From Bacteroidales bacterium (GTDB taxonomy: Bacteria > Bacteroidota > Bacteroidia > Bacteroidales > UBA3824): a stretch of 64,000 bases of DNA. Of this stretch, positions 13,167 to 21,321 are shown piece after piece (within the stretch, counting starts at the first letter, position 1; the number at the start of each line of letters is the position of its first letter). The DNA lies in contig JAGCYI010000230.1 of assembly GCA_017960885.1 (NCBI GenBank), positions 3,175-67,174 on the forward strand, in the 5' to 3' direction. The notes under the pieces were generated by a model, which worked only from the letters and a program-made list of their open reading frames with translations, did not search any database and was not told where the DNA came from. Made by a program: the position numbers and the translations under genes.

Positions 13167-14012
13167 TTAAAATTCGTTTCGGTATTGTAAAACGCTGCAG
13201 TCTAATAATTTGTTTAGCAGTTTGTTGGTTTTTGTGGCGCGTTTCCTTTTGGCGCAGTCTGCCGCGTTTTTTATCCCTCCTATATAATAACGTTGAATCC
13301 ATGGTAAAACGCATAACACGGCTGTCCAATTGCCATAATTATTTGCTAAATATATTCCGAGGGTTACAAACGAACCTATAAGCATCTCTGAGGCTATGCC
13401 GTCGATGGGGCTGTTGCTTATATACTGTCCTGTTCCAGGAACAATTGCGCTTGATATTCCGGCGATTGCGGGCGATGGTTTGCCCAGCCTGCGTGTCTTG
13501 CGCATGAGCTTTTCTAATTCGTGCTGTTTTTCCGTACTCACAACTTTTGATAAATACTCTTGACATTGGCTGTATTGTGCAAGATGGTAGCAGCATATTG
13601 CTAAGCGGAGGTTTTGTCCGGCAGATAATTCTTCAAACTTGTCGGTATCTATCTGCATCAATGCGCCTATTGCGTTAAAGTATTTTTTAGATGAAATATA
13701 GATATCGGCTTTTGCCATAAGCACTTCGTTCTGTTGTAAATTGGAATTTACTTTTTGGTAAGCTTGATTGATAAGTGCTTCGGCTTTGCCATTGTTTCCA
13801 GTGTAGGCAAACAACCGAGCCGCGGTGATATATTTTTGCGGATTATTACTTATAGTATCGAATAAAATAGCACGTTGTATCTCTTTTAACGCCAATAAAG
13901 TATCGCCGTTGACAAAAGCTTTAACGGCGCTGTTGTACACCGAATCGCAATTCTGGCTATAAAGGGCACAGTTAGAAAAGATTATTATACATATAATCAA
14001 TAATTTGTCCAT
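13167..14012 (-). CDS. TPR-like protein with C-terminal TM2-like membrane motif
   Basis: Signal peptide, helical repeats, KPSPAIAGISSAIVPGTGQY, YYIGGI. Confidence 0.75.
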   Translation of the reverse strand: MDKLLIICIIIFSNCALYSQNCDSVYNSAVKAFVNGDTLLALKEIQRAILFDTISNNPQKYITAARLFAYTGNNGKAEALINQAYQKVNSNLQQNEVLMAKADIYISSKKYFNAIGALMQIDTDKFEELSAGQNLRLAICCYHLAQYSQCQEYLSKVVSTEKQHELEKLMRKTRRLGKPSPAIAGISSAIVPGTGQYISNSPIDGIASEMLIGSFVTLGIYLANNYGNWTAVLCVLPWIQRYYIGGIKNAADCAKRKRATKTNKLLNKLLDCSVLQYRNEF

Positions 14013-14772
14013 CTCTGATATTCCTTTGTGCTTTGTTGAACTTATTTACTGATTTAGCAGTTCCGAAAATGTTGCCAATGTAGAAACACGCCGATACAGA
14101 CCCGAAAAATATCGGATATGGGTCGCGAAAGCCATATTTTCTGAATCCGTATATCAAGTGCAGGTAGTCGAAACATGTTCTCAGCATAGCAATGATGCCT
14201 TCGCGCACGTATCCGCAGTAAATTCTGCCGCTGCCTGGCACTATTGCCGACATTGTGATTGCAGGAAACATTCTTTTTTGTTTTATGTTGCTTGTACACA
14301 ATGATTTAATTTCTGGTAGAATAAACTCTGTTTCCTTTGGAGTGGGATAGTCGCATATTGTAGAAAGTCCATATTTTATGTTGTGAATCTTGGTGGTGAA
14401 CGGGGCTTTTACCGAATCGCAATAAACAAAAGCTGTATCGTATTGGCGGTTTTTTATCAGGAGTTTCACATAGCTGAAATAGTATTGGGAGTTGCTTCCT
14501 GCATGAGGAAGAACATATTTTTCAAAATGGTTGAGAGCATTTTTGAAGTCATAGGCAATTTCATAACATTCAATTGCTTTAATTGAGTAATCTAAACTAT
14601 TGCTATAACTGTTTTTGGCAAGACGTCCGTACTCTTCGGCTGCGAAATGATACTGCTGTGTGTTGTAAAGGTATTGCGCAAACACTTTGGTGTGCGCTGT
14701 GTCGTAAAGGTTCTGCCCTTTTGAAATGTTAGCTGCCAGAACTGTTAATATGAATACAAAAGCATATCTCAT
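13972..14772 (-). CDS. TPR-like protein with C-terminal TM2-like membrane motif (paralog)
   Basis: Start adjusted to ATG 14772 (ATGA overlap with upstream gene); AITMSAIVPGSGRIYCG, FYIGNIFG. Confidence 0.75.
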   Translation of the reverse strand: MRYAFVFILTVLAANISKGQNLYDTAHTKVFAQYLYNTQQYHFAAEEYGRLAKNSYSNSLDYSIKAIECYEIAYDFKNALNHFEKYVLPHAGSNSQYYFSYVKLLIKNRQYDTAFVYCDSVKAPFTTKIHNIKYGLSTICDYPTPKETEFILPEIKSLCTSNIKQKRMFPAITMSAIVPGSGRIYCGYVREGIIAMLRTCFDYLHLIYGFRKYGFRDPYPIFFGSVSACFYIGNIFGTAKSVNKFNKAQRNIRDGQIIDYMYNNLF

Positions 14773-15695
14773 TTTTTCCGTTTCAAAGGATAGTCGATAA
14801 GGCGGTTGCGATTTTCGTCGAAAATGTATCCGTTTTTGTCGATGCCGTTGCATCTTAACAAACGGTCGAATGTGTCGGCAAAACCGTAAAAAAATCCGTT
14901 TTGGCTGAATGTTATTTTGCTATATTGCGAACACGACGGATAAAAACTGCATTGCTGTATGTCTTGAGGCGATATTATTCTCTTGTAAAATGCGAATAGT
15001 CCGTTGTAAAATGTTTTTCCTTCTTCTTCGCATAGAGAATCGCGTTGAAATGCCTCTGTGGGGTAGATTTTTGACGAGTCAGGCTCAAATTTGTCGAACT
15101 CTATGTGGCTGTAAATATTCTTGACGTAGAGCTCTTTTTCGCCGTATGTTACGGATATTGTGCGAGTTGGAAAATCTACGCCTCCGATGGTTTCGTAGTC
15201 GTAATAAAAAGTCTTACCAATTACTGAGTCGTTTTTATCGAACATTATTTCGGCATCCAAGCGGTTGCCAGTTTGCGATGTCATTATTTTGCAAACTATG
15301 GTTTGGTTGTGTTTGAGCAGGGTGTCGGCGATTTGCGGTGGTAGCTTATACGTTGTGATAGCCGATGTGCCTCTTTTTGCCACCGCCACCGGCTCAAAAT
15401 TGTAATCTGTTGCCGATGTGGCTGCAAATCCAGCGTTGACAGCCTGGTAGAGAATCGACTGCTTGATTTGTGGTTGTCTTACTACAGTAGTTATTGTGGT
15501 TGGTAAAACATATTCTTGCACAAGTATTTGGCATCCTTGATGGTAGCTTAAATGCCCTTTTGAAAGAATGTTGATGGTTTTGCCGTCGGTAATTTCTTCT
15601 AAAAAGTCGGCTTCTACCGAAAAATGTAGCTGAGCTTCTGCGTTGATGCAGAGGCAAATAGATAGACACGCCGCTACTATTTTACCGAGAGCCAT
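14769..15695 (-). CDS. Secreted protein: LolA/sorting-like N-domain fused to C-terminal YidD-like domain
   Basis: C-terminal FYKRIISPQD..CSFYPSCSQY..G..DRLLRCNG; N-terminal signal peptide; YYDYETIGGVDFPTR. Confidence 0.72.
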   Translation of the reverse strand: MALGKIVAACLSICLCINAEAQLHFSVEADFLEEITDGKTINILSKGHLSYHQGCQILVQEYVLPTTITTVVRQPQIKQSILYQAVNAGFAATSATDYNFEPVAVAKRGTSAITTYKLPPQIADTLLKHNQTIVCKIMTSQTGNRLDAEIMFDKNDSVIGKTFYYDYETIGGVDFPTRTISVTYGEKELYVKNIYSHIEFDKFEPDSSKIYPTEAFQRDSLCEEEGKTFYNGLFAFYKRIISPQDIQQCSFYPSCSQYSKITFSQNGFFYGFADTFDRLLRCNGIDKNGYIFDENRNRLIDYPLKRKK

Positions 15696-16036
15696 TTTAT
15701 CAACCCTCCCACAGCGGCGCCCGTTAAACAGCCGAATATAGCGAGCTTAACCTCTCTACGGTCTCCGTGCTTGCAAGCGTATACGATAGCCACAGCAATG
15801 GGACCAGCTCCCGCGCCGTACAATGTGTAAGTGCCAATTGCCGACACAATAGAAGTGAACAGGAATGTGGGCATTCTTCCCGGCATTGCAGAATCGGTAT
15901 AGCTTATAGCAATGCTGTCGGCTGTGGCAAATTTTTCGGCAATGCCAGCGTCTGAAAACAAATCGGGGTCTTCTCCGTCGGCGTAACTTGCTGTAAAACT
16001 GAATATCAACAATATAAGCGATAGTAGCTTCTTCAT
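15677..16036 (-). CDS. Small signal-peptide protein with Gly/Ala-rich hydrophobic C-terminal segments
   Basis: Start adjusted to ATG 16036: MKKLLSLILLIFSFTASYA, acidic linker, then GAGAGPIAVAIVY..GCLTGAAVGG. Confidence 0.75.
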   Translation of the reverse strand: MKKLLSLILLIFSFTASYADGEDPDLFSDAGIAEKFATADSIAISYTDSAMPGRMPTFLFTSIVSAIGTYTLYGAGAGPIAVAIVYACKHGDRREVKLAIFGCLTGAAVGGLIKWLSVK

Positions 16037-16040
16037 TGTT

Positions 16041-16535
16041 TTATTTGTGTGATTTGCGTTCGAGATTTGCGTTGATATATTGGTTGAGCTGTTTTTCAAG
16101 CACTTCAACCTCGCTAGGAGAGAGCGACGAGATGTTGAAGTCGGGATAAGTGTAATTTTCCAGCTCGTGTTGCTTGTTGAGGCCGCGGATTGTGATCGAC
16201 AATGTGCGACGTAGACCAAACAGCTGCTTTTTGATTATGTATTTGTGCAGCAATTGTTTCTTGATGCTGAATGCCACATGTTTGCGCAATATGGGGAATG
16301 CATTGTAGGTGCGTATCTCTATTGGGTCTTTGTCGTCGCAAAAACTGAAAAACGAGGGACGCAGAACCAGCAGCATAAAAAGAAACACTACGCCAAATAT
16401 GATTCCTGACACTAACAGCGATATAGGATGCGGTCGGTCAACATAATAGTAGATAAATGATCCTATACTGAGAAGGAATGTTGCTATATAAGCCAATCGG
16501 TATTTCGATGTCGATAAAAGGTTATCTGTGTACAT
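16041..16535 (-). CDS. Hypothetical membrane protein
   Basis: Two N-terminal TMs and a basic soluble tail. Confidence 0.65.
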   Translation of the reverse strand: MYTDNLLSTSKYRLAYIATFLLSIGSFIYYYVDRPHPISLLVSGIIFGVVFLFMLLVLRPSFFSFCDDKDPIEIRTYNAFPILRKHVAFSIKKQLLHKYIIKKQLFGLRRTLSITIRGLNKQHELENYTYPDFNISSLSPSEVEVLEKQLNQYINANLERKSHK

Positions 16536-17878: not shown

Positions 17879-19159
17879 ATGTCATATTTTTTCACATCCG
17901 AATCAGTTTCGGAAGGACATCCCGACAAAGTGGCAGACCAGATTTCTGACGCACTTTTGGATGAATTTTTAAAACAAGACTCCGAGAGCAAGGTGGCTTG
18001 TGAAACTTTTGTTACCACAGGTCTTGCAGTTTTGGGAGGCGAAGTTAAAACAGAGGCGTATGTCGACGTGCAGCAGACAGCCCGCGACGTTATCAACCGC
18101 ATCGGTTACACCAAGGGAGAGTATATGTTCGACGGCAACAGCTGCGGCGTTATCTCCGCTATTCATGGTCAGAGCCAGGACATTAACCGTGGCGTTGAGC
18201 GCGAAGACCTCGACAATCAGGGCGCCGGCGACCAGGGTATGATGTTCGGATATGCTGTAAAAGAGTCGCAGAACCTTATGCCTTACAGCATCGAGCTCGC
18301 TCACAAACTTCTTATCGAACTTGCTGCCATCCGCCGCGAGGGCAAGCAGATGACCTATCTCCGTCCCGACAGCAAGAGCCAGGTGACAATAGAATACGGC
18401 GACAACAATGTTGCAAAACGTATCGATACCATTGTGATTTCTACTCAGCACGATGAGTTTATCAAAGCCGACACTCCTAAAAAGCAGCTCAAGGCCGACA
18501 AGGACATGGTTGCAAAAATTACCGAAGATGTCCGCGACATTCTTATTCCACGCCTGCTGAAAAAACTCAGCGCAAAGGAGAAGGCTCTTTTCAAGGGCGA
18601 CTACAAACTGCTGGTTAACCCCACTGGAAAATTTGTAATCGGTGGTCCTCACGGCGATACTGGTCTTACAGGCCGCAAGATAATTGTAGACACTTACGGT
18701 GGCAAGGGCGCACACGGCGGCGGAGCATTTTCTGGCAAAGACCCCTCTAAGGTAGACCGCAGCGCAGCATACGCTACCCGTCATATAGCCAAAAACTTAG
18801 TGGCTGCCGGTATTGCCGACGAATGCCTCGTGCAGGTGGCTTACGCTATCGGTGTGGCTCAGCCAGTTGGCTTGTATGTTAACACTTACGGCACAAGCAA
18901 GGTAAAAATCAGCGACGGCGAAATTGCAGAGAAACTTCTCAAGGTTTTCGACCTCCGTCCCGCTGCTATTATCCGCCGATTGAAACTTAAAAACCCGATT
19001 TTCTTGGATACAGCCGCTTACGGACATTTCGGTCGCGAGCCTTACTCCAAAAAAGTGGAAGTTTTTGAAAACGGTAAAAAGGTGAAAAAAGAGGTAGAGT
19101 TCTTCACGTGGGAAAAACTTGACTATGTAGACACTCTCAAAAAAGAATTCGGAATTTAA
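17879..19159 (+). CDS. metK: Methionine adenosyltransferase
   Basis: [35 protein letters not shown]. Confidence 0.98.
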
Positions 19160-19308
19160 CCTTTTTTTTAAACTTATTATACAATATTTGGCAAGGAATA
19201 TGGTTATTAATAATGCAACCATATTCCTTTTATGTTGGTCAGAAACATAAAGGTTATTAATTACGTATAGTTGTTTAGTTATAACAACCATGGTTTATTG
19301 ATTGAGAT

Positions 19309-19533
19309 ATGAATAAACAAAAAAAAATATTATTCTTCGTTTCCTTTGCATTGTGTATGCTATTTAGTGGGGAATTGTTGGCAGGAGTCGGTAATGGAGG
19401 CAAGCCTCAGTATCCTGTTCCTCTCGATGGTGGTGTTTCTGCTCTTATAGCTGCTGGCGTGGCTTATGGAGTGAAAAAGTATCGCGACTATCGTTTAAGC
19501 AAGAGGGAAGAAGATAGCAAAACTTCTGAATAG
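19309..19533 (+). CDS. Tiny PID-CTERM-like sorting-signal protein
   Basis: Signal peptide + GVGNGGKPQYP + VPLDGG-VSALIAAGVAYGV-KKYR (motif, TM, basic cluster). Confidence 0.82.
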   Translation: MNKQKKILFFVSFALCMLFSGELLAGVGNGGKPQYPVPLDGGVSALIAAGVAYGVKKYRDYRLSKREEDSKTSE

Positions 19534-19547
19534 ACTATTAACTTTTT

Positions 19548-20090
19548 ATGTCTACCAGGTTTTATCATAGCTGGTCGCCGTTGGCAAAGGTGGGTTTTAA
19601 TCTCGCAGTTGCGGCAGTGGCGGGTTTCCTTTTCTTTTTCTGTCTGAAAAAAAACTATTATGTGTTTGCCCTTTATGAGGAAGGGGTCTACCTTCTTACC
19701 GAGTTTATTGCTAATTCGGTAAAAAATATTCTTAATCTATTTGGTTATCACTGCTATACATTTGGAAAAATAATAACCGACTCCTATGGTGGCGGACTTA
19801 TTTTAGACCGAGGTTGTGTGGGACGCACAGTTTTGGTTGTGTTTTCTGCGTTTATAATCGCCACTCCTGCAGAGGTTAAGCGCAAGATACTCTATACGCT
19901 TGCCGGTTTTGTGGTGATAATTTTGCTTAATATTCTCCGCTTAATTATGCTCATTCTTGTGGCACAATATCATCCAGATTGGTTCGACTTTACTCACGAA
20001 TACCTTTTCAAATATATCCTTTACGCAGGTGTGTTTGGACTTTGGGTGTTGTGGGTAAGAAAATTCAGGTCTTCATCTTCTTCTTTTTAG
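19548..20090 (+). CDS. Exosortase/archaeosortase-family protein
   Basis: Multi-TM; catalytic Cys (RGCVG), Arg (NILR), His (FTHEY); C-terminal LWVLW. Confidence 0.85.
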   Translation: MSTRFYHSWSPLAKVGFNLAVAAVAGFLFFFCLKKNYYVFALYEEGVYLLTEFIANSVKNILNLFGYHCYTFGKIITDSYGGGLILDRGCVGRTVLVVFSAFIIATPAEVKRKILYTLAGFVVIILLNILRLIMLILVAQYHPDWFDFTHEYLFKYILYAGVFGLWVLWVRKFRSSSSSF

Positions 20091-21321
20091 CAGCAGGGAA
20101 GAGCACGTTGTTGAGTATCAGTCGGTAACCTGGAGAGTTGGGGTGAAGGTCGAGGTCGGTGGGAGGATCACCCACATAGTGCAGATAATCTTCGGGGTCG
20201 TGTCCGCCATACCATGTCCATGTGCCTTTTCCAAATTCGCCGTGTATGTAGCGGGCTTCGTTGGCTGCTTTGTTTTCGCCCATTATCAAGACCGAACTTT
20301 TTAAAACCTCTTTGCGATACGATGTTGTCTGTCCCATGAAACCGTCGATAATGTTTTCGTGGTTTTGACAGAGCATGGTGGGCACAGGGTCCCATTTGGC
20401 GGAGAACTCAAACAGAGTGAAAATGTCGTTGTCTTTTTGCACGCGTCTGGAATTTGTGGCGTCTATGTCGCTGTATTCGTATACGTTGGGGTTGAGTTCG
20501 AGTTTAAAATTCTTGAAGGCGAATGTGGCATCAAAGTCGAGCTTCGACTGACAGTTGGGGTCGATGGGGTCGCCGTCGAACATTGATTGGCAGATGTCGG
20601 TGTTTTCGGCTGCGAGTGCAATATCGAAACTGTCGGTGGCACTGCACATTGCAAACATAAATCCTCCGTTGCCTACAAACTGCTTTATGGTTTTTGCAAC
20701 AGCCAGTTTTAGTTTAGACACTTTGGTGTATCCCATTTTCTGTGCAAGTGCGTTAAATTCAATTACTTGGTTTTTGTACCACGGTACATTTTTGTACGAC
20801 GCGTAAAATTTGCCGAACTGACCAGTGAAATCCTCGTGGTGAACGTGCAGCCAGTCGTATTTTGACAGTTCTCCAGTGAGTATTTCCTCGTCGTATACCA
20901 CTGTGTAGGGTATTTCGGCGTATGTTAGCACCAGCATAACGGCATCGTCCCACGGTTTGTAGGTCTTGGGTGCGTAGACTGCTATTCTTGGAGCTTTTTC
21001 TAATTTGATATGCTCCATGTTAACATCGTTTCGCGAAATCTGCGCTAAAATATTGTCGGCTGCTGCGTCGGGAATCTGTTGGAAACTTACGTTTCTTACT
21101 CGGCAGATGGTGGCTATCTGGTCGGTATAGTCTGTTAGAAAACTTCCGCCGCGGTAGTTTAGAAGCCATTCTGCTGTAAATCCTGCCTCCAAAACCGAGT
21201 ATGTAACGCCGTAGGCTTTTAGATGGTTTGTCTGGCTCTCGTCCATGGGAATCAGAATCTTCATGGCAGCGGAGGGCAGTGCAGAAATTATTACTATCAA
21301 TATGGCGGCAATAATTCTCAT
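20065..21321 (-). CDS. Conserved secreted Bacteroidota protein (often labelled 'asparagine synthetase B')
   Basis: ILIPMD..QTNHLKAYG, WLLNYRGGSF, WLHVHHEDFTGQ, FAMCSATD, GGHDPEDY. Confidence 0.8.
   Translation of the reverse strand: MRIIAAILIVIISALPSAAMKILIPMDESQTNHLKAYGVTYSVLEAGFTAEWLLNYRGGSFLTDYTDQIATICRVRNVSFQQIPDAAADNILAQISRNDVNMEHIKLEKAPRIAVYAPKTYKPWDDAVMLVLTYAEIPYTVVYDEEILTGELSKYDWLHVHHEDFTGQFGKFYASYKNVPWYKNQVIEFNALAQKMGYTKVSKLKLAVAKTIKQFVGNGGFMFAMCSATDSFDIALAAENTDICQSMFDGDPIDPNCQSKLDFDATFAFKNFKLELNPNVYEYSDIDATNSRRVQKDNDIFTLFEFSAKWDPVPTMLCQNHENIIDGFMGQTTSYRKEVLKSSVLIMGENKAANEARYIHGEFGKGTWTWYGGHDPEDYLHYVGDPPTDLDLHPNSPGYRLILNNVLFPAAKKKKMKT

Follow-up and report, generated by a model that had tools for sequence, protein, structure and literature searches.

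What use can a cell make of a protein that consists of a signal peptide, a sorting tail and hardly anything in between? The question is raised by a two-gene unit in a genome of the order Bacteroidales (G000, 85% complete), where a gene for a protein of 74 residues stands immediately ahead of the gene for an exosortase. The original prediction, made from the stretch of 64,000 nucleotides that we call the window, saw in the small product a lipid-anchored or released peptide, acting as a signal, a regulator or a glycan primer rather than as a surface protein. This was probably the wrong contrast, as the peptide appears to serve surface proteins, and the class of its partners, the cargos of type IX secretion (T9SS), was missed.

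A mini-protein and an exosortase behind metK

The mini-protein (19309..19533, forward strand) reads, in order, MNKQKK...GELLA, GVGNGGKPQYPV, PLDGG, the hydrophobic stretch VSALIAAGVAYGV and KKYRDYR. Its predicted Sec signal peptide (residues 1-25; 19309..19383, forward), with a basic N-terminus and a hydrophobic core, would be cleaved after A25, a residue that is near-invariant in 46 homologues. There follows a stub of 12 residues (19384..19419, forward), a low-complexity spacer that varies among relatives, then the PLDGG signature (19420..19434, forward), predicted to be the region where the exosortase cuts, in which P38 is invariant and G41 and G42 are at least 90% conserved, and finally a hydrophobic segment (residues 43-55) with the basic cytoplasmic tail KKYRDYR... 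(together 19435..19530, forward), where L46, G50, Y53 and K57 are again at least 90% conserved. This succession of motif, helix and basic tail is that of the PID-CTERM proteins, and a search with the family profile NF046080 (PID_CTERM) gives the protein 44.8 bits for a cut-off of 26, which nothing else in the genome exceeds. With a profile restricted to the tail, the ORF scores 58.3 bits and the runner-up among the 45,362 ORFs of the genome 8.5, so that we are not dealing with a chance match. Further tails of the P[IL]DGG, transmembrane helix and basic end type, which the original prediction proposed to look for, were sought in G000 as P[ILVF][DE] followed by helix and basic end, and the scan returned no second one of the same kind; a single-protein query of the genome contigs matched only two loci.

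The exosortase ORF (19548..20090, forward) starts 14 bp after the stop of its neighbour and encodes a short-type enzyme of 180 residues. General models recognise it above cut-off (TIGR04178, 58.1 bits for 23; PF09721, 34.1 for 25.7), and the pair announced from the raw sequence is a real one. The triad that had been described as intact, C90, R131 and H150, is invariant in all seven aligned orthologues, Cys/Arg/His being the suspected triad of the exosortase family (10.1101/2023.06.07.544157). All named subfamilies remain below their cut-offs when the proposed profile check is made: XrtX (NF046081) comes nearest with 97.1 bits for 170, followed by XrtF (TIGR04128, 72.9 for 90), XrtH (72.2 for 86) and XrtY (51.5 for 160). 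XrtA scores 18.7 bits for a threshold of 208 and the motif here is PLDGG, which places the pair outside the PEP-CTERM/XrtA system. No other exosortase was found by profile search in G000. In G000 (85% complete), G005 and G019 there was no above-cut-off match to the XrtX-associated membrane protein NF046082, nor any match to the XrtF partner TIGR04127, for which genome G685 provided the positive control. Pairs of NF046080 with an XrtX-like enzyme are already catalogued, and this one forms an ordinary, compact locus in which the accessory membrane proteins known from such systems are lacking. The mini-protein belongs fully to its family; the library entry for exosortase X offers a name only.

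As had been noted, the unit lies between metK (17879..19159, forward; TIGR01034, 508.6 bits for a cut-off of 309.4), which is outside the system, and a conserved flanking gene of 418 codons (20065..21321, reverse) that is convergent with the exosortase gene and overlaps its 3′ end. Of 24 genus relatives, 23 have this second flank, whether or not they have the pair. Its product, 80-99% identical in these 23 relatives, has a predicted signal peptide and no match in Pfam or NCBIfam.

So small an ORF might be the remnant of a longer surface-protein gene, or some non-functional leftover, and in G019 the PID tail that lies beside the exosortase has no clear signal peptide. Against this, purifying selection acts on the tail of the mini-protein, whose codons differ from those of eight homologues in the genus by 9-15 synonymous and 1-3 non-synonymous changes per 23 codons. 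Contigs from RNA libraries of three gut studies span part or all of the ORF, and two of them bridge its junction with the exosortase gene; they are weak support for a transcript, DNA carry-over being possible, and they cover so little of the exosortase gene that they are uninformative on its expression. Of 400 high-completeness genomes drawn from the phylum, 83 have NF046080 matches, with up to 20 scored per genome; among the 150 matches listed, out of a set that comprises 183 more, no open frame exceeds 168 codons. A remnant, which would have refuted the original prediction, is a most improbable explanation.

Type IX cargos beside the mini-proteins

That next to nothing separates the signal peptide from the tail, as first noticed on this single gene, is the rule of the family. 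Among 46 aligned members (two with long Gly/Asp stubs, and near-duplicates, were left out of the alignment) stub length ranges from 9 to 26 residues around a median of 12, and the composition is 24% Pro, 12% Gly and 11% Asp. Ser and Thr are absent from 13 of these 46 stubs, that of the window included, and the sequon D-(S/T)-x occurs in one of them, which makes a glycan primer a weak explanation for the family at large. Stubs from within the genus are wholly different, whereas the helix, the basic tail and P-[IL]-D-G-G are conserved; it is therefore the tail, and not the stub, that holds the information, and the freedom of the stub and the constraint on the tail argue against a sequence-specific signal as well as against a remnant. 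The stub begins with Gln in 37 of the 46 members and with Gly in the window. An N-terminal Gln is described as cyclised under the Bacteroidetes Q-rule (PMC10653852), and, by analogy, the Gln-initial stubs would have no free amine once cyclised. In the closed genome G122, which has five exosortase matches, the stubs of two members (L157:2503-2895 and L163:772-1209) consist of 75-90 residues of Gly/Asp runs, so that the length of the spacer is itself free.

Outside the locus of the window, most PID genes sit directly behind the gene of a T9SS cargo of type A, with TIGR04183 above cut-off in 18 of the 22 PID-neighbour proteins scanned. These cargos have in common, just before their export signal, a region of about 400 residues, henceforth the module, that no Pfam or NCBIfam family covers, at most one of 83 members having a match to any family. 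A module profile built only from modules without a PID follower matches the neighbouring ORF at 26 of 29 PID loci of the phylum, a count that takes the best match per genome and in which many loci belong to one family. Among closer relatives, 17 PID loci divide into five beside a module cargo, ten beside an exosortase and two beside neither. G122 has at least 150 matches to T9SS signals, five module cargos and five PID genes, and a PID gene comes directly after each of the five cargo genes. Such a one-to-one ratio of peptide and cargo genes, together with tails that are nearly identical, suggests stoichiometric use, hence pairing with a protein. In other genomes the proportion of module cargos with an adjacent PID gene varies among the loci fetched (4/7 in G194, 3/7 in G290, 1/6 in G386, and 0/5 in G126, where flanks were short), and it falls to 1 of 13 in the genus of the window. 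Other module cargos have at their side a divergent PID-like ORF that scores under the NCBIfam cut-off (L130, L132, L201, L202 and L206). On the whole we find it probable that the peptide system and the module cargos are functionally linked.

What, then, would be the clients in G000 itself? Two of its 29 matches to T9SS signals belong to module cargos, putative clients of about 3,000 residues each that are encoded on other contigs (C176:16032-25031 and C26:78637-87732) and that combine the module with a type A TIGR04183 signal, at 34.4 and 31.5 bits for a cut-off of 23. No PID gene was found after either of them. Just past position 87732 of C26, where a PID gene might follow, we note a short tandem repeat (MHYALCI in one frame). 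A further T9SS cargo of the genome, of 1,231 codons (C279:4441-8133), displays a partial match to the PorU model at 58.8 bits; it is probably a gingipain-like protein with a C25 domain.

Considered alone, the pair of the window has no cargo gene adjoining it, and PID genes adjoin the exosortase gene in 11 of the 43 exosortase loci examined, as would befit a short peptide, released or lipid-linked, whose action as a signal or regulator would need no cargo. This suggestion of the original prediction has not fared well, since the stub is of low complexity and varies freely in length and sequence even within the genus, the family is tied to one cargo class, as many as 20 copies are scored in a single genome, and no gene for a receptor or a peptide transporter was found among the flanking genes scanned. 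We consider it improbable.

The three components also share their distribution. Within the genus, PID gene, exosortase and module occur in the same eight of 24 relatives (G001, G005, G008, G009, G014, G017, G019 and G024); the remaining 16, among them several that are 95-98% complete, gave no match to any of the three. As PID gene and exosortase gene are neighbours in the positive relatives, the information comes from the module alone, which is unlinked to the pair, with the exception of G019, whose module was part of the query profile. The negative relatives tested keep their T9SS, with 20 signal matches in G003 and PorU in both G003 and G013, as in G000. On a tree of the 418-residue flank protein (from which G004 is absent, and where G027 and G029 are counted as negative), the positives make up one clade of eight that includes G000, together with the early-branching G019, and the presence label needs two changes. 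Read along this tree, the three components were probably there in the ancestor and lost together once or a few times, rather than arising in eight independent events. The locus of the window adds to the picture an unlinked case, with pair and presumed clients on different contigs, yet gained or lost together.

In the draw from the phylum, an exosortase accompanies PID in 83 of 83 positive genomes and the module in 82 of them, and in family f23 the same eight of 21 genomes have all three, one more genome having a weak module match only. The reverse does not hold. A module is present without a detected exosortase in 57 of 166 module-positive genomes at E<=1e-5, and in 15 of 119 at E<1e-22; five module-positive genomes with neither exosortase nor PID had no PID-like follower at any of ten module loci. 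The modules of these five genomes retain the core residues, and the candidate positions that might set apart the modules of exosortase-negative genomes are R22 (85% vs 33%) and S168 (77% vs 25%), in a comparison with 12 gapped rows that is not decisive. Finally, an exosortase occurs without module in 42 of 151 exosortase-positive genomes; family f40, whose exosortase frames, among those listed, are longer, accounts for 24 of the 42. Judged from these distributions, the peptide system is dependent on the module, and the module is not always dependent on the peptide system. In G019, at the locus whose PID ORF has no clear signal peptide (L018:1354-2148), the pair has the large Ig-like/DUF2141 gene on one side and a pdxA-like gene on the other; that genome has a further PID gene, an intact one, which follows a module cargo on another contig (L008).

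Possible roles of the detached tail

A homologous system is known by its genetics in Flavobacterium johnsoniae. In Table 2 of PMC10936215, the deletions of xrtF, fjoh_1449, fjoh_0651, porU, porZ and fjoh_0334 have identical phenotype rows, namely much less biofilm and no zorbs, and the row of xrtF groups with the PorU/PorZ attachment complex, not with sprA/porV. XrtF is needed for biofilm formation, and its substrates, according to that article, are still to be found; 10.1101/2024.12.02.626408 likewise states that its targets are unknown. The gene fjoh_0651 was located by means of its complementation primers, given in the supplement of PMC10936215. The upstream primer has an exact match in one of 301 genus genomes, G685, and the primers span about 414 bp, enclosing a single ORF of 80 residues with a signal peptide, a Pro/Ala stub, the sequence PINQD, a hydrophobic helix and a basic tail. 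It is placed between pdxA and a riboflavin synthase-like gene (names read from the sequences), and the G019 pair, in the genus of the window, is also just upstream of a pdxA-like gene. The PID profile gives this ORF 17.8 bits over its full length and 5.4 for the tail only, and a genome-wide search of G685 with the profile missed it; syntenic ORFs in two relatives, L197 and L207, reach 24-28 bits. Fjoh_0651 would then be a PID-like mini-protein, an identification by architecture and synteny in which homology is weak. Three more Flavobacterium-type PID-like ORFs lie directly before module cargos, and G685 has nine module matches as well as XrtF with its TIGR04127 partner. In the literature searched, Fjoh_0651 appears only in PMC10936215.

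The XrtF system resembles that of the window in its short exosortase, its module cargos and its PID-like mini-protein; it differs in that the enzyme of the window scores below the XrtF cut-off and has no TIGR04127 partner detected in the genome. The cargos differ as well: the two of G000 are of type A, while those of the Flavobacterium type, among them L227-L231 and L235 of G685 and L131, L133 and L134, mostly carry the type C signal, NF033708 being above cut-off in 9 of the 10 tested. It may be that the T9SS type C class of this genus is largely the module class.

Among deposited chains, the module matches RemA (E 2.6e-35) and RemZ (E 1.3e-26) of F. johnsoniae, whose structures resolve only the C-terminal domain (CTD; PMC10994853). 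AlphaFold2 models residues 1-410 of the C26 module as nearly all-beta, with a pLDDT of 87, and its N-terminal 248 residues with a pLDDT of 86. Foldseek returned no match for the module models in the PDB at E<=0.001, which is no proof of a new fold; with VIA-align the best matches had Z 5.3 (rmsd 3.7, 112 aligned) and Z 2.5 (rmsd 4.4, 100 aligned). Conservation falls on Asn-Pro, two Asp, Arg-Phe, Gly and aromatics, with no Cys or His, and for this reason the module looks structural or ligand-binding rather than catalytic. At the cell surface RemA forms immobile as well as highly mobile foci, and SprB fused to the RemA CTD alone is surface-held and immobile (PMC12618676). A role of the RemA body in mobile retention fits these observations, which also show that the RemA CTD is able to anchor by itself.

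How could a tail without a body serve a body without such a tail? The T9SS signal and the exosortase tag are both C-terminal, so that one polypeptide should not be able to carry both, and a tag supplied in trans would solve the difficulty. We are inclined, while granting it somewhat less than an even chance, to see the mini-protein as a detached sorting tag, processed by the exosortase and acting in trans as the anchor or docking partner of module cargos. Once exported by Sec and relieved of its signal peptide, the product would, according to its anatomy, leave the stub, PLDGG and the transmembrane segment in the inner membrane. The exosortase Cys would then cut in or near PLDGG and move the stub to a lipid or glycolipid acceptor, as might be expected from the archaeosortase ArtA, on which both the removal of the tail and the attachment of lipid depend (10.1101/2023.06.07.544157). 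The module of the cargo, here those encoded on C176 and C26, would recognise the PID end of the product, as gene linkage suggests, and the cargo would be kept on the cell or matured.

Known systems offer partial parallels. The PEP-CTERM/XrtA and PGF-CTERM/ArtA systems have the same tripartite tail (motif, transmembrane helix, basic end) and the same Cys/Arg/His membrane protease (10.1101/2023.06.07.544157), but in those systems the tag forms one chain with a large cargo, whereas here it carries some 12 residues and the likely client is separate, with its own T9SS signal. Within the T9SS, where type A cargos are anchored by PorU to A-LPS and type B cargos use PorP/SprF shuttles (PMC12618676), a cargo gene is likewise followed by that of a dedicated partner, on which the final location of the cargo may depend. 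PorP/SprF is, however, an outer-membrane shuttle, while the partner here is an inner-membrane peptide of about 70 residues, and recognition would go through the module that precedes the CTD and not through the CTD.

Two features favour an anchor: the one-to-one pairing of peptide and cargo genes, with near-identical tails, and the fact that the xrtF and fjoh_0651 rows match those of PorU/PorZ. Doubt comes from modules that exist without exosortase or PID, from module cargos without PID gene, from the small number of events in the genus, from the weak homology of fjoh_0651 and from a loss of biofilm that is a generic phenotype, shared by a polysaccharide gene. We know of no route that would bring a lipidated stub to the outer leaflet, and this counts against an anchor, as does the surface retention of the SprB fusion by the RemA CTD alone (PMC12618676). 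As a specific mechanism, anchoring is accordingly put forward as a tentative proposal.

The same linkage between PID and module would be accounted for by a periplasmic holdase, or timer, where the peptide, still uncut, would bind to the module at the inner membrane while the cargo folds or is passed on to the T9SS, until the exosortase cut frees it, with no lasting anchor. Conservation limited to the motif and transmembrane segment of the peptide agrees with this, transport of the stub to the outer membrane becomes unnecessary, and the modules found without the peptide system fit in as well. We deem it rather unlikely all the same, as the exosortase-family enzymes studied are those of lipid attachment and surface retention (10.1101/2023.06.07.544157), and as the xrtF knockout resembles PorU/PorZ rather than sprA/porV (PMC10936215).

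A third role would be that of a glycan carrier or primer, the processed stub being joined to, or priming, a surface polysaccharide that module cargos bind, so that its link to them would be indirect. The gene fjoh_0334, which shares the knockout phenotype, belongs to a polysaccharide locus (PMC10936215), PEP-CTERM systems are tied to exopolysaccharide (10.1101/2023.06.07.544157, 10.1101/2024.12.02.626408), and the module has, in its C-terminal third, a beta-sandwich whose weak matches include carbohydrate-binding modules, at Z of 5.3 or less. The composition of the stubs given above speaks against it, no glycan genes were found among the flanking genes scanned (Pfam/NCBIfam), and the pairing of genes in G122 suggests a protein as the stoichiometric partner; the role is an unlikely one.

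Should the tag in trans be true, two sorting systems thought to be separate would act on one surface protein, the tag being a separate gene product. The link would name a candidate substrate of XrtF, a candidate class of clients, the RemA/RemZ-type cargos, and a candidate recognition module. Pushed to its end, and here we are decidedly speculative, the argument would make of it a further route for surface retention of T9SS cargos in Bacteroidota, with an exosortase-lipidated mini-protein captured by the RemA-type module of about 400 residues; Fjoh_0651 would be the missing substrate of XrtF, and the window would hold a minimal, two-gene anchor factory for two unlinked cargos of 3,000 residues. 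A link between the mini-protein and T9SS cargos was not found in the literature searched, nor was PID-CTERM as a term, nor the association of exosortase, small protein and type IX secretion, subscription journals and the curator comments of NCBIfam being outside the search.

Composition and exchange at the locus

The unit had been described as AT-rich. This is so in comparison with the two flanking genes, whose GC content is 0.47-0.49, and marginal in comparison with the genome (0.41 and 0.40 for the two genes, 0.425 for the genome). A recently acquired island was considered and rejected, the GC content being near the genome mean and the exosortase tree of the genus following that of the flank gene. 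No empty metK site was found among the negative relatives, where synteny is broken. A promoter scan was uninformative, with six sites for 3.0 expected, and so was one for the Bacteroidota -7 promoter motif, with four for 2.9 expected, none of them upstream of the ORF.

Over 19109-20097, which comprises the upstream region, the PID gene and the exosortase gene, the window differs from L004 at only seven sites, while the flanking genes are about 90% identical. Synonymous differences amount to 4 in 75 and 3 in 181 codons in the pair, and to 80 in 427 codons in metK, which suggests that the unit was recently exchanged between two species by homologous recombination. Its near-identity is not unique, other tracts at 97-99% being found at about 47.1-48.6 kb and 12.3-13.2 kb. 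Elsewhere in the window, a co-oriented run of genes (13167-16219, reverse) encodes two TPR-like exported proteins, a protein of 308 residues and a membrane protein of 180 residues; in the 308-residue protein, the N-terminal part is unannotated and is fused to a YidD domain at the C-terminus.
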